A model generated the notes under the pieces. It was not told the origin of the DNA and searched no databases. It saw only the letters and a list, made by a program, of their open reading frames with translations. From positions 423,772 to 487,771 of the forward strand of contig JBDTVZ010000001.1 in the NCBI GenBank assembly GCA_040006935.1: a stretch of 64,000 nt of DNA, read 5' to 3'. Positions 675 to 4,708 of the stretch are shown piece after piece. The DNA is from Candidatus Dojkabacteria bacterium. Its GTDB lineage: Bacteria > Patescibacteriota > Dojkabacteria > J137. The translations under genes were made by a program, and so were the position numbers. Each line of letters opens with the position of its first letter. Position 1 is the first letter of the stretch.

Positions 675-714
675 CCTGTAATCTTGGTGTGGATGCTCCA
701 GTTTGGAAATGTTG
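675..714 (+). promoter_or_regulatory. Conserved ~40-nt upstream element, copy A (cctgtaatcttgg-N-tgctccag-N-aaatgttg)
   Basis: Near-identical blocks shared with 1817..1856. Both lie 40-90 nt upstream of plus-strand genes (804 and 1896). Confidence 0.4.
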
Positions 715-803: not shown

Positions 804-1784
804 ATGAATGAAGGTCTTTTCAAACAATTAAACAAAGGGCATCTATTAAGAGATAAATCACATAAACCTACAAATGAAATAATAGATCGACTAAAAAATA
901 AGATTGATGCTTTAAAAGGTGATGCAGAACTTGAGGACATAGGCGCTGATGGACAACCAGTAGATTTAAATACTATTAATATTACAGACCCGAACGATAT
1001 CGCTGAGATCGATCACAATATTGAGGAATTAAGATATATTATGGAAGAGTTGCAGCGTTTTATTGAGAGTGGATCAAGAGAGAAGTTACTGAAATATTTT
1101 ACTGAAGATCAATTAGAAAATCCTGATTTCTTTAAAGAAGCCTTAGATCAAATAAATCAATTTTTAAGATTTAGCAATGAAGTAAGAGAATCTTTGCAAA
1201 ATAATGCCACCATGAGCTTGGGACGCGTATATTCTACTGTTCTAAACTTTCAATCCACCTTAGGCACGTTAACTAAAGATTCTCACGGAGATGAGTCTTT
1301 AATTAATGAAATTATTACAGGCAAAGACTACCTTAAAAATAGGAATGAGGTTAATGCTTTAACCGAAATAAAGAAAATTACTGAAGACATATCAAATTTT
1401 TCTGACAAGATATATGAAAAATTATTTTTAGGTATCAATCGTGAAAGCACAATAGTTGGTGAGGATACATATAATACTCTATTACCTTATATTCCTGGCT
1501 TAAAAGAAAGGGTTCAATTTATTTTAAACCTGACCTCGGAAGATTTAACTTTCTTAAATATTTCAGATAAAGAAAAAGAAGAAAGTTTAAATTCTATAAA
1601 AAGAGAAGCTGAGGTTGCTCTCGAATATATTGAAATAATAGAAAATCCTGAAAATAAACAAGATTTAATTTCTCAGAATAAGCATGCATCAACAATAAGA
1701 GGCCTTATGGTAATCACAAGTTCAAATGGATTAAAAGCTGGATTAGCCAATAGACTATATGCTTTAATTCTACGCGAAGAATAG
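804..1784 (+). CDS. hypothetical acidic protein (predicted coiled-coil rich, no TM)
   Basis: 326 aa ORF with ATG start and TATAAT-like box upstream; no recognisable family motif. Confidence 0.5.
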   Translation: MNEGLFKQLNKGHLLRDKSHKPTNEIIDRLKNKIDALKGDAELEDIGADGQPVDLNTINITDPNDIAEIDHNIEELRYIMEELQRFIESGSREKLLKYFTEDQLENPDFFKEALDQINQFLRFSNEVRESLQNNATMSLGRVYSTVLNFQSTLGTLTKDSHGDESLINEIITGKDYLKNRNEVNALTEIKKITEDISNFSDKIYEKLFLGINRESTIVGEDTYNTLLPYIPGLKERVQFILNLTSEDLTFLNISDKEKEESLNSIKREAEVALEYIEIIENPENKQDLISQNKHASTIRGLMVITSSNGLKAGLANRLYALILREE

Positions 1785-1816
1785 TATAAGCGGATCGCCG
1801 TGTATCTTTGGGTCCC

Positions 1817-1856
1817 CCTGTAATCTTGGCGCTATTGCTCCAGCTTGAAAATGTTG
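1817..1856 (+). promoter_or_regulatory. Conserved ~40-nt upstream element, copy B
   Basis: cctgtaatcttggcgctattgctccagcttgaaaatgttg; ~75 percent identical to copy A at 675..714. Confidence 0.4.
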
Positions 1857-1895
1857 TGCTAAGCTCCCAATAATATTAACAATTCGCTATAGTTA

Positions 1896-2087
1896 ATGTA
1901 TAATAAACATACTATGACAAAACAAAAAACTACTAGAAAAAAGAATCAAGAAAAACAAGCTCTTAAAACAGCTTTATTAAAAAATACTCCTAAACTTTCT
2001 AAAAAATCTCAAAAGGAAGTCAAATCTGCATTCAAAAAAGCTATCGTTCATTATGGAGAAGCACTTCGAAAACTCGGACAAACATAA
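1896..2087 (+). CDS. small lysine-rich basic protein, candidate antitoxin/partner of Doc-family toxin
   Basis: 63 aa ORF, 15 nt upstream of the Doc-like gene on the same strand; composition unlike canonical Phd. Confidence 0.4.
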   Translation: MYNKHTMTKQKTTRKKNQEKQALKTALLKNTPKLSKKSQKEVKSAFKKAIVHYGEALRKLGQT

Positions 2088-2102
2088 TTAATCTTTAGAT
2101 AA

Positions 2103-2531
2103 ATGACAAAAAAAGTTTCACTAGATGAGGTCAAGAACCTTGCTTATGAATTTGCAATAAAGTATTTAGACTGGGATGAACCAATTCCAGAATTTGAAAC
2201 CAGATTTCCCGGAATCTTGGAAAGTTGTTTAGAGCAGCCATTTCAAAACGTATATGGGGAAGTGCTTTATAGGGGTGTTACTAAAAAAGCTTCTATGTTG
2301 TTCTACTTAATGATTAAAAATCACCCATTTAAAAATGGAAATAAACGTCTTGCGGTCTTGACAACTTTGCTTTTTCTCCATAAAAATAGCAGATGGCTAT
2401 ACGTTTCTAACCAGAGACTTTACGAACTTGCAGTTGAAGTTTCAAAAAGTGAAATGAAAGATAAAGAAAATGTAATAAATGCATTGAACGTCTTACTGGC
2501 TGAAAATATCAAAAATAAATTACCGGAATAA
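2103..2531 (+). CDS. doc: Doc (death-on-curing) / Fic-family toxin
   Basis: 142 aa; motif HPFKNGNKRLAV matches the Doc-type Fic motif HxFx(D/N)(A/G)NKR. Confidence 0.7.
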   Translation: MTKKVSLDEVKNLAYEFAIKYLDWDEPIPEFETRFPGILESCLEQPFQNVYGEVLYRGVTKKASMLFYLMIKNHPFKNGNKRLAVLTTLLFLHKNSRWLYVSNQRLYELAVEVSKSEMKDKENVINALNVLLAENIKNKLPE

Positions 2532-2582: not shown

Positions 2583-2708
2583 ATGACCAAACTCAAATTC
2601 CCAAAAATCACACTTCGAGGCTTATTCTTAGCACTGTTAGGTTTCCTAACTCTCGCTGGAATCGTCCTTACACCGCTATTAATGGTGGTTCAATATATTA
2701 AATTATGA
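2583..2708 (+). CDS. small hydrophobic membrane peptide (41 aa), translationally coupled to recG
   Basis: ATG..TGA ORF MTKLKFPKITLRGLFLALLGFLTLAGIVLTPLLMVVQYIKL; its stop overlaps the recG ATG (ATGA); not in ORF track (<60 aa). Confidence 0.35.
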   Translation: MTKLKFPKITLRGLFLALLGFLTLAGIVLTPLLMVVQYIKL

Positions 2709-4708
2709 ACTACAAACTTAGCGATAAAATTACCGTGCTTCCTCAAATCAGCACTCGTTATGCTACCAGCTTGGAGCGGCTTGGAATTGTTACTGTAAAA
2801 GATTTAATTACATATTTCCCCTATAAATATTTAGATACAAATCAAAAAAAATCCATTCAGGATTTACTTTTACATCCAGACGAGGAAGGAAAATATTTAG
2901 TTCAAGTTCGAATTAAAAATTTTAAAAACCAATATATTCGAGGAGGGAGAAGTATTCAAAATGGTTTAATTTACGATGAAAGTGGAGAAATGAAAGTATC
3001 ATGGTTTAATCAACCGTTCATGGTTAGAGTTTTAGCAAAAGATTCTGAATTCTTGTTTTATGGAAAGATAAAAGTGAAAGGAAAACACACAATTTTTTAC
3101 CCAACAATTTACGAAGAAGTACAAGAAGGAAAAGATTCTGTGCATTTAAGTAGATTAACTCCCGAATACAGATTAACAACTGGAATCTCAAAAAAATGGT
3201 TACGAAGTAGAATAAAGTTTTTAATGGACTATATTGATATTATTGACATCACAGATGAATTTTTAAAAGAAGGTTTATCAAAACATTCAAATAAGGATTT
3301 AATTAAAGATGTTCATTTTCCAGAAACAGCAAAAGATTTAGATAATGCAGTAAAAGATTTATCTTTACGTGAATTTACAAATTTACAATTAAAATTAGAA
3401 GCAAAACGAAAACAAGCCAAGAAGCAAAATGCACCAGCTGTAAAAAAAGGAGTCGATTTAAGGAACCTTGCAGATAAATTTATAGCTGAACTTCCATTTG
3501 TATTAACTCCAGACCAGAAAACAATCATTGATAATTTAATTGAAGAAATTGGGAAGAAGCCAATTAACGCACTTGTACAAGGAGATGTGGGTAGTGGAAA
3601 AACTATTATCGCAATAATTTTAAGTTATTTAATTTCGAAAATTGGTTACCAAAGTATTGTTCTTGCGCCTACAACAATTCTTGCAAAACAACATTTAGAA
3701 ACATTTAATAAATTTTTAAAAGGCAAAGCAAAAGTTCTACTTGTAGTCGGAACAACAAAAGAAACAGAAGACGCAGACATTCTGATTGGAACAACAGCAG
3801 TTTTAGCTAGAAAAGAAGGATTAGTAAAAAAACCTGGATTAGTAGTGGTGGACGAACAACATAAATTTGGAGTTAAACAAAGAGAAGAGCTTTTAGGAGA
3901 ATATCGAAGTTTGTTTAAAGAGAAATACTATCCCCACTTTATAAACATGACCGCAACTCCAATTCCCAGAACAATTGTACAATCACTATTTGGAGATTTG
4001 GAAGTTTACTCACTAAATTCGAAACCAAAAGGAAGATTACCAATTCGAAGCTTTTTAGTTCCAGACGAAAAGAAAGCAAGTGGATACGAATGGATAAAAA
4101 ACGAAGTAGCAAAAGGAGGGCAAGTATTTTGGGTTTGTCCATTAGTAGAGGAATCCGATAACTTACAACTTAAAGCAGCAAAAACAACATTTGAAGAATT
4201 GAAAGAATATTTTAAAGATTCTGAAGTGGAGCTAATCCATGGAAAACTTAAAGAAGATAAAAAGACAGAAGTTATGCAAAAGTTTAATGCAAATAAAATT
4301 CAAATTTTAGTAACAACATCTGTTATTGAAGTTGGAATTGACGTTCCAAATGCAAATATTATAGTAGTAGAATCCGCAGAAAGATTCGGACTTGCGCAAC
4401 TTCACCAGATGAGAGGTAGAGTAGGAAGAGGAGAAAAGCAAAGTTGGTGCTTTTTATTCACTTCCCCAGAAGTATCGGATTTAGCAACAGATAGATTAAA
4501 TTTCTTTTGTGGAAGTAATGATGGATTAAAAATCGCAGAATACGATTTATCTTTAAGAGGACCAGGAGAAGTTTACGGAACAAAACAATCTGGAATTCCA
4601 AATTTAAAAATCGCAAGTTTTAAAGATATGAATATTATTAAAGAGAGTAAAAAGACAGCGGAGGTTTTGTATAAGAAAGGGTATAGAGTAGTAGAGTTGT
4701 TTTCTTAA
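2705..4708 (+). CDS. recG: ATP-dependent DNA helicase RecG
   Basis: 667 aa; wedge domain N-terminus, Walker A GDVGSGKT, DEQH box, helicase C motifs (QLHQMRGRVGRG). Confidence 0.9.
   Translation: MNYKLSDKITVLPQISTRYATSLERLGIVTVKDLITYFPYKYLDTNQKKSIQDLLLHPDEEGKYLVQVRIKNFKNQYIRGGRSIQNGLIYDESGEMKVSWFNQPFMVRVLAKDSEFLFYGKIKVKGKHTIFYPTIYEEVQEGKDSVHLSRLTPEYRLTTGISKKWLRSRIKFLMDYIDIIDITDEFLKEGLSKHSNKDLIKDVHFPETAKDLDNAVKDLSLREFTNLQLKLEAKRKQAKKQNAPAVKKGVDLRNLADKFIAELPFVLTPDQKTIIDNLIEEIGKKPINALVQGDVGSGKTIIAIILSYLISKIGYQSIVLAPTTILAKQHLETFNKFLKGKAKVLLVVGTTKETEDADILIGTTAVLARKEGLVKKPGLVVVDEQHKFGVKQREELLGEYRSLFKEKYYPHFINMTATPIPRTIVQSLFGDLEVYSLNSKPKGRLPIRSFLVPDEKKASGYEWIKNEVAKGGQVFWVCPLVEESDNLQLKAAKTTFEELKEYFKDSEVELIHGKLKEDKKTEVMQKFNANKIQILVTTSVIEVGIDVPNANIIVVESAERFGLAQLHQMRGRVGRGEKQSWCFLFTSPEVSDLATDRLNFFCGSNDGLKIAEYDLSLRGPGEVYGTKQSGIPNLKIASFKDMNIIKESKKTAEVLYKKGYRVVELFS

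Follow-up and report, generated by a model that had tools for sequence, protein, structure and literature searches.

The 64,000 nucleotides of DNA from Candidatus Dojkabacteria that are analysed here, and to which we refer as the window, contain a gene for a protein resembling the toxin Doc that is preceded by a small gene coding for a lysine-rich protein, which raises the question of what accompanies this toxin and whether both genes form a toxin-antitoxin (TA) module. An earlier interpretation made from the letters alone, hereafter the sequence-only reading, had proposed either a new class of antitoxin for Doc or a Doc protein that was recruited to a function outside of TA biology.

The Doc protein and its small basic neighbour

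The two genes are located on the forward strand and in the same frame, with the small gene spanning positions 1896..2087 and the gene of the putative toxin positions 2103..2531, separated by a gap of 15 nt. On its upstream side, the pair is bordered by a gene coding for a 326-residue protein without recognisable domain in Pfam or NCBIfam (804..1784), for which a scan of metagenome contigs found no relatives, and the same side also holds an HD-domain gene, whereas the downstream neighbour is recG (2705..4708), on whose side genes for SpoU-type and RsmD-type methyltransferases are found. Neither a second Doc-like nor a second partner-like gene is present in the 64 kb of the window. The region is AT-rich, with a GC content of about 32%, and since this content is uniform across the Doc locus, the pair is no recent import.

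The 142-residue protein encoded at 2103..2531 is a member of the Doc family, as evident from its match to Pfam PF02661 (Fic/DOC) with 40.3 bits (curated cut-off 24) and to NCBIfam TIGR01550 (DOC_P1) with 42.3 bits (curated cut-off 38.65). Among its 1243 detectable homologues, all those that carry a name are death-on-curing toxins. The catalytic motif HPFKNGNKR (residues 74-82, positions 2322..2348 on the forward strand), which can be read directly from the sequence and is invariant in an alignment of 25 homologues, fits the HxFx(D/N)(A/G)NKR form of Doc proteins and not the HPFx(D/E)GN(G/K)R form of AMPylating Fic proteins (PMC2686095). In the same alignment, 34 columns are invariant, including the entire stretch K-N-H-P-F-x-N-G-N-K-R and an N-terminal block of the sequence W-x-E-P-I-P-x-F-x-x-R-x-P-x-x-L-E-S. 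A model obtained by AF2 on the basis of these 25 homologues (pLDDT 90.6, pTM 0.87) displays the complete all-helical Doc fold, and the top matches of this model in a Foldseek search of the PDB are structures of P1 Doc (3K33, 3DD7 and 3KH2; probability 1.00, TM 0.68-0.80 over 135-138 columns), with larger Fic proteins scoring clearly below. A profile search of PDB sequences with the window protein also identifies 9VZC, described as 'death-on-curing family protein'. The assignment of the gene as a Doc-type toxin carrying HPFKNGNKR, which was central to the sequence-only reading, is thus borne out, and the protein possesses the full Fic fold whose absence had been named as a potential objection.

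Besides the fold and the HxFx(D/N)(A/G)NKR motif, the locus has in common with the Phd-Doc system of P1 that the gene of the partner is located directly upstream of the toxin gene, whereas the window protein is only 19-20% identical to P1 Doc and longer, with an additional conserved W-D-E-P-I-P-x-F-x-T-R-F-P motif at its N-terminus. P1 Doc is a kinase acting on EF-Tu. Judged by its motif and its fold, and at this low level of identity, the window protein would be an active kinase that blocks translation in a similar manner as P1 Doc does by phosphorylating EF-Tu. An alignment of 79 Doc sequences from related loci contains 40 columns with a conservation of 90% or more, and the window protein has the conserved residue in 38 of them, with the two deviations, a change of leucine to threonine and of alanine to serine, both being mild. 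Its score of 200.6 bits against the profile of these relatives compares to values of 227.6±7.7 in the family (minimum 202.1), although it has to be considered that the window protein was outside the training set of the HMM, which lowers its score relative to trained members. Because the motif and nearly all conserved columns are kept, and the low score is in part a training-set effect, the toxin appears intact.

The small gene contains two in-frame start codons on the forward strand, of which ATG1896 would give rise to a protein of 63 and ATG1914 to one of 57 residues. Since a stop codon is found two codons 5' of ATG1896, the reading frame cannot be longer. The 57-residue form is annotated by NCBI, and ATG1914 is also the more likely start from the sequence, because ATG1896 overlaps with the -10 hexamer of the best-matching promoter-like sequence, which is described below. 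As stated in the sequence-only reading, the protein is unusually short, lysine-rich and very basic, with a pI of 10.5 and 18 lysine and arginine compared to three aspartate and glutamate residues. It is also, as claimed, unlike Phd or YefM: no match to a Phd/YefM domain is found in Pfam at E-values up to 1, and neither Pfam nor NCBIfam contains any family that is matched above threshold. In the AF2 model of the 57-residue protein, which was predicted from an alignment with the family members introduced below, the chain folds into two helices comprising residues 3-23, where confidence is modest, and residues 30-56, whose core shows block-mean pLDDT values of 94-96. The first, lysine-rich helix may bind DNA in a non-specific manner.

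When used as single query, the 63-residue sequence retrieved only itself, regardless of whether 5.8 billion clusters were queried through a word index or 1.84 billion representatives with phmmer. One further match in these single-sequence searches concerned a repetitive protein of 1331 residues. The roughly 30 residues of the N-terminal half are without detectable relative in either of the two collections, and the short form of the protein is a singleton in these database searches.

The usual partner of related Doc proteins and the ancestry of the small protein

What is usually encoded next to relatives of this Doc protein was investigated in a scan of genomes, one per species, which identified at least 570 loci containing such relatives. 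The best 80 of these, which mostly originate from Patescibacteria and whose Doc proteins are 47-55% identical to the window protein, were kept for analysis. In all 80 of these best loci, a protein of about 84 residues is encoded directly upstream of Doc on the same strand, with gaps between both genes mostly ranging from -4 to +11 nt. A profile of 85 positions, which was built from 75 of these upstream proteins, matches each of the 80 upstream regions, in 79 cases as full-length protein in a single frame and in one (L012) split by a frameshift. The N-terminus of the partners, at about residues 4-48, is a helix-turn-helix (HTH) of the excisionase type (Pfam HTH_17, TIGR01764), which is followed by a C-terminal tail with the consensus xGxxLxxxxKxxIxxxVxKxxxEYGExLKxLGxE, also written as …KKEIxKAVKKxVKEYGExLKxLGKE in the proteins of about 84 residues. 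Within this tail, a tyrosine and a leucine are invariant and the conserved hydrophobic residues follow a spacing of i, i+4, i+7/8, i+11, i+15 and i+18. The partners are themselves basic, with a median pI of 9.7 and 67 of the 75 above pI 9. Flanking proteins are common to only 72 of 3240 pairs of loci, and the neighbourhoods are hence highly variable, which is consistent with a mobile two-gene TA module.

In databases, the partners are named 'excisionase family DNA binding protein', 'helix-turn-helix domain-containing protein' or 'hypothetical protein', and full-text searches of a literature library found no description of an HTH_17 or excisionase protein that is paired with Doc. A census from 2009 lists Phd, AbrB/MazE and YhfG as partners of Fic/Doc proteins and truncated MerR-like HTH proteins only together with PIN toxins (PMC2701414). 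In groundwater Patescibacteria, we also found conserved mini-proteins that consist of the tail only and are encoded without adjacent Doc (L081-L087). At three further loci (L088-L090), the HTH is degenerate, the reading frame of the tail persists and Doc is a frameshifted fragment in which the histidine of the motif is changed to arginine.

The relationship of this family to the small protein of the window emerged only with the profile from the neighbours of Doc homologues, since the searches with the single sequence were blank. When applied without filters to the six-frame translation of the window, which comprises 847 fragments of 30 or more residues, the partner profile finds a single match, which is the small reading frame (E = 1.5e-6; next best fragment E = 1.2). 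It aligns residues 32-63 of the 63-residue form, encoded on the forward strand at 1989..2084, with positions 53-84 of the 85 in the HMM, and defines this C-terminal tail as homologous to the tails of HTH_17-type Doc partners. The tail of the window protein (LSKKSQKEVKSAFKKAIVHYGEALRKLGQT) retains the invariant tyrosine and leucine, the Gly-Glu following the tyrosine and the penultimate glycine, as well as all hydrophobic positions (-22, -18, -14, -11, -7 and -4), which are located on one face of an α-helix. Charged residues of the family are lost at -25 (lysine to glutamine), -12 (glutamate or aspartate to histidine) and -1 (glutamate to threonine). Against a profile of the tail, the window sequence scores 26.4 bits, compared to 55.3±5.4 bits for the family members (minimum 42.1), while 50-58 bits are reached by three short proteins that consist of the tail only and had not been used for training. 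The tail is in this respect much more diverged than that of every sampled member.

Conversely, no part of the HTH is detected in the window protein, which shows neither a match to positions 1-52 of the HMM nor to HTH_17 and in which about 34 N-terminal residues are missing. A remnant of the HTH is also absent from a three-frame translation of 1700..2090 with masked stop codons, and in a MAFFT alignment the 57-residue protein starts about where the 'wing' of the HTH ends in the family. Because the tail is homologous and the HTH part is unmatched, the small protein is, judging from its sequence, a 5'-truncated member of the normal partner family of this Doc subfamily. With this family it has in common the position upstream of Doc, the strand, the short spacing, the basic charge and a cognate Doc of the same subfamily, and it differs by the lack of the entire HTH, the sequence of which is kept in all of the best 80 of at least 570 loci, with 79 being frame-intact. 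The sequence-only reading has to be revised in this light, as the high content of basic residues, which it had regarded as atypical, is a family trait. What sets the protein apart is instead that its HTH has been lost completely. The co-occurrence that had been proposed as a check is observed, with a homologue of the small reading frame being conserved beside Doc throughout the sampled relatives.

A second family points to the role of the tail. The window protein resembles positions 41-73 of the 74 in TIGR02609, a family of Doc-adjacent proteins termed 'doc_partner' (putative addiction module antidote), with E = 0.047 and 14.1 bits, below the cut-off of 55.9, and leaves positions 1-40 of that profile unmatched. 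If 63 isolated tails of 34 residues are compared to NCBIfam, 20 match the C-terminal third of TIGR02609, with a best E-value of 7e-4, whereas no other family is matched by more than two of the 63, and one full-length partner matches TIGR02609 at E = 1e-4. All these matches, at 14-23 bits, are far below the curated cut-off of 55.9 bits. Since two families of Doc partners with different DNA-binding heads have the tail in common, it is likely to be the part that faces the toxin.

We infer that the tail would act as a helix that neutralises Doc by lying over its active-site groove, as does the C-terminal helix of Phd on P1 Doc, because it accompanies the toxin in all of the best 80 of at least 570 loci and because there is precedent for such an element in structure and experiment. 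The structure 3DD7 shows Doc in complex with the C-terminal domain of Phd alone. The 'Phd-C' element of a Panacea-type antitoxin neutralises Doc when grafted onto the unrelated scaffold SUMO, and antitoxins consisting only of a neutralisation domain are reported to exist (PMC10440598). The bare Phd-C element, in turn, did not neutralise its Doc unless stabilised by the SUMO tag (PMC10440598), and the bare tail may for that reason be a poor antitoxin. The analogy to Phd is one of concept: a comparison of the tail profile with P1 Phd, whose sequence was checked against 3HRY and 3K33, gave an hhalign probability of 0.09 and thus no detectable similarity. No solved homologue of the tail was found in the PDB, where the best match (E = 0.098) concerns a subunit of an archaeal RNA polymerase and appears to be due to chance. 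At position 53, the window Doc contains a glutamate where 85% of the family has lysine or arginine. A compensating charge swap between this residue and the acidic losses in the tail was considered and rejected, as the composition of the tail is unchanged in 12 family pairs that lack lysine or arginine at this site.

Sequence elements upstream of the pair

The place that is occupied by the HTH-coding 5' half of the gene in full-length partners is taken in the window by two sequence elements. A σ70-like promoter sequence, TTAACA-17-TATAAT, is found at 1876..1904 on the forward strand and matches the consensus at 11 of 12 positions, although it is a pattern match only, with nine such sites in the region compared to 10.5 in shuffled sequences. 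If used, transcription would start near 1911 and the message translated from ATG1914 would be almost leaderless. The -35 hexamer of this sequence is preceded at a distance of 19 nt by the second copy of a 40-nt element (1817..1856), whose first copy (675..714) lies upstream of the 326-residue gene at a distance of 33 nt from the respective -35 hexamer, both copies being on the forward strand. The element had been recognised in the sequence-only reading as conserved and common to the neighbouring gene, and the analysis supports this view: the copies are identical at 33 of 40 bases and are the only two in 64 kb, with 0.00 expected from 100 shuffles. They form direct repeats flanking the gene at 804..1784, are each followed by the promoter-like sequence of one of two neighbouring transcription units and consist of perfectly conserved blocks around a free spacer of 6 nt. 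A scan of metagenome contigs found no copy of the element.

Two alternative interpretations of the element were dismissed. It does not behave as a structured RNA, in light of the absence of a match in Rfam and of folding energies that are close to those of shuffled sequences (z = +0.6 and -0.4); a small hairpin in the first copy is broken in the second. A resemblance by eye to a σ54 -24/-12 box (TGGCGC…TGCT) fails on the spacing between GG and GC, which is 3 nt too short.

A probable Doc module with a partner lacking the HTH

Taken together, the pair is probably a functional Doc module whose minimal antitoxin would only neutralise the toxin and would have lost its role in autoregulation. The locus would in this case be a chromosomal type II TA module of a subfamily that is common in Patescibacteria. 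Its toxin, Doc (2103..2531), would block translation as a kinase, whereas its partner, translated from 1914..2087, would be the 5'-truncated descendant of an antitoxin of about 84 residues that has lost the HTH_17 domain and retained a linker and the C-terminal amphipathic helix (…KEVKSAFKKAIVHYGEALRKLG), by which it would cover the active-site groove of Doc and neutralise the toxin. Because the antitoxin would be devoid of a DNA-binding domain, it would not repress its own operon, and transcription would begin at the promoter-like sequence at 1876..1904, which, like the 40-nt element, is now located where the 5' part of the gene has been lost. Of the features by which type II modules are recognised, we find two small co-oriented adjacent genes, a partner that is conserved with the toxin and variable neighbourhoods, while the DNA-binding domain that the antitoxin would itself be expected to contain is absent from the window protein.

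In its presumed mechanism, the locus resembles several known systems without being equivalent to any. It would have in common with P1 Phd-Doc the neutralisation by a C-terminal helix, as seen for the isolated Phd domain in 3DD7, whereas its partner contains no Phd/YefM domain, shows no sequence similarity to Phd, the C-terminus included, and is basic instead of acidic. The PanA_Phd-C:Doc pair of Corynebacterium doosanense offers the example of a short C-terminal helical neutraliser with an exchangeable or dispensable N-terminal domain, although there the element is joined to a Panacea domain and is not protective on its own without fusion to SUMO (PMC10440598). The tail of the window protein is preceded only by a lysine-rich helix of 30 residues, and the likeness is one of concept. 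Antitoxins without DNA-binding domain are known from epsilon-zeta, which works together with omega, and from other three-component TA systems. As in these systems, transcription in the window would have to be controlled by something other than the antitoxin, but a third regulatory gene is not evident, since the upstream gene for the 326-residue protein is domainless and no other partner-like HTH is encoded in the window.

Several other explanations have to be weighed against this scenario. It is unlikely, though to be taken seriously, that the locus is in an early stage of decay, where a deletion or rearrangement would have removed the HTH together with the native promoter, leaving behind a drifting tail and a Doc protein that is silent, weak or impaired. 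A tail that scores at 26 bits, where the family minimum is 42, and the singleton status of the short form would agree with such a process, as would the precedent of decaying loci elsewhere (L088-L090 and the frameshifted partner in L012) and the failure of the bare Phd-C element to protect unless stabilised (PMC10440598). The score of Doc at the bottom edge of its family points in the same direction, but it is lowered in part by the absence of the protein from HMM training, and both reading frames are intact, with a whole Doc motif, 38 of 40 conserved columns kept and a tail that retains its invariant tyrosine and leucine as well as the full hydrophobic face. Moreover, selection would act quickly against a toxin that is still intact while its antitoxin is dead. 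That the small protein instead represents the new class of antitoxin suggested in the sequence-only reading, unrelated to known Doc partners, is highly improbable. The idea would agree with the lack of any match above threshold in Pfam and NCBIfam, with single-sequence searches that find only the protein itself and with 30 N-terminal residues without detectable relatives, but it is contradicted by the E-value of 1.5e-6 (next best 1.2) with which the profile of neighbours matches the C-terminal 32 residues, by a family found upstream of Doc in each of the 80 sampled loci and by a gene position, orientation and basic charge that all correspond to those of this family.

The second proposal of that reading, a recruitment of Doc outside of TA biology, finds no support in the two-gene architecture that is kept and in the neighbourhoods of the relatives, which are variable as in mobile TA modules. 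According to a further explanation, Doc would have been domesticated as a regulatory kinase of the host, for example to tune translation, with the mini-protein as stoichiometric inhibitor and with expression controlled by a host factor that acts at the 40-nt element instead of by TA autoregulation. This we consider rather improbable. The absence of an autoregulatory DNA-binding domain, the location amid housekeeping genes (recG and the SpoU-type and RsmD-type methyltransferases) at host-like GC content and a 40-nt element whose conserved blocks and 6-nt spacer resemble a protein-binding site, placed ahead of the promoter-like sequences of two neighbouring transcription units, could all be read in its favour. 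Chromosomal TA modules are, however, often found among housekeeping genes, and the element is a putative binding site with only two copies in 64 kb that differ in their distance to the -35 hexamer (33 compared to 19 nt), for which scans of metagenome contigs found no relatives. A comparably small chance is assigned to a more far-reaching version of the minimal antitoxin, in which the HTH-less protein would be a stable selected form that has uncoupled Doc from TA autoregulation and placed it under the control of a promoter and an operator of the host, the latter being the 40-nt element, with a novel role for the lysine-rich helix and with the tail-only proteins of L081-L087 acting as free-standing anti-Doc 'anti-addiction' factors. 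If so, the N-terminal helix might stabilise the tail, act as degron or tether the protein to nucleic acids or the ribosome.

With regard to this locus, the analysis primarily provides a correction: the basic partner that had seemed atypical can be accounted for by homology, so that a new class of antitoxin need not be postulated, and its HTH-less form agrees with the modular concept of antitoxins that is already established, without constituting a category of its own. Two further points of modest weight apply more widely. The large Patescibacterial family that combines an HTH_17 head with a doc_partner-like tail carries no antitoxin annotation, and because its members are annotated as excisionase, HTH or hypothetical proteins, Doc modules in Patescibacterial genomes are under-called as complete TA pairs. 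With about 57 residues, which essentially make up a linker and a neutralising helix, the protein of the window would itself be a minimal antitoxin of natural origin. Both this protein and the tail-only proteins that are found without Doc are relevant to the model in which antitoxins evolve in a modular manner by 'linear neutralisation elements', and they could define the minimal peptide that inhibits Doc.

A repeated element around the gene upstream of the Doc pair

Upstream of the gene pair encoding the Fic-fold toxin Doc and its small basic partner, we found an element of 40 nucleotides that occurs on the forward strand at positions 675..714 and 1817..1856 of the window, with 33 of the 40 bases being identical between both copies. 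Its layout, CCTGTAATCTTGG-N6-TGCTCCAG-N-TTGRAAATGTTG, combines a free spacer of 6 nt with perfectly conserved surrounding blocks, and no further copy is contained in the 64 kb. Arranged as direct repeats, the two copies bracket a gene (804..1784, +) coding for an acidic protein of 326 residues, which was assigned to no Pfam or NCBIfam family and for which no relatives were found in a scan of metagenome contigs. Each copy is followed 19-33 nt downstream by a match to a sigma-70-like promoter. A search of Rfam with the element and a scan of metagenomes both returned no match, and no conserved fold was found in it. The element might possibly serve as operator or as activator site, or it could be the scar of a duplication of the promoter region that has replaced the 5' half of the antitoxin gene.

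A small reading frame between Doc and recG

Between Doc and recG, an ORF on the forward strand (2583..2708) encodes a hydrophobic peptide of 41 residues (MTKLKFPKITLRGLFLALLGFLTLAGIVLTPLLMVVQYIKL). Since its stop codon overlaps the start codon of recG by 4 nt (ATGA), its sequence suggests a real small membrane protein that would be translationally coupled.

Partner tails at loci without an intact Doc, and a split partner gene

The conserved C-terminal helix of Doc partners, their tail, is also found in mini-proteins of 48-53 residues (P0190, P0150 and P0240) at seven loci from groundwater metagenome contigs (L081-L087, e.g. L081:3001-3432), none of which contains a neighbouring Doc gene. These proteins combine a lysine-rich N-terminus with a fully family-like tail (50-58 bits against the tail profile), and are followed downstream by a conserved protein of 57-67 residues (…KEHRHDEINxDCxECKFRIFEGYLEWYKDL) without match in Pfam. 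In L081-L084, the mini-proteins are located between genes for a release factor and an Asp/Lys-type tRNA synthetase, the latter likewise residing downstream in L085. The tail-only proteins may act against Doc as orphan factors, or else they may pair with a toxin that is so far undescribed.

At decayed loci (L088:1821-2400, L089 and L090), the partner ORF (P0203) retains an intact tail next to a degenerate HTH, and Doc is a frameshifted fragment lacking the N-terminus, with the motif histidine replaced by arginine (KNRPLQNGNKR). A split partner gene, encoding HTH and tail in different frames, was found in only one of 80 related loci (L012:2580-3000), reflecting either a frameshift or an assembly error.

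Doc-like domains in candidate defence proteins

The Doc domain of the window (2103..2531, +) matches the C-terminal domain of the PADLOC candidate defence protein PDC-S23 (E = 7e-20) and likewise that of PDC-S05; fused Doc-like domains are therefore found inside candidate anti-phage systems.
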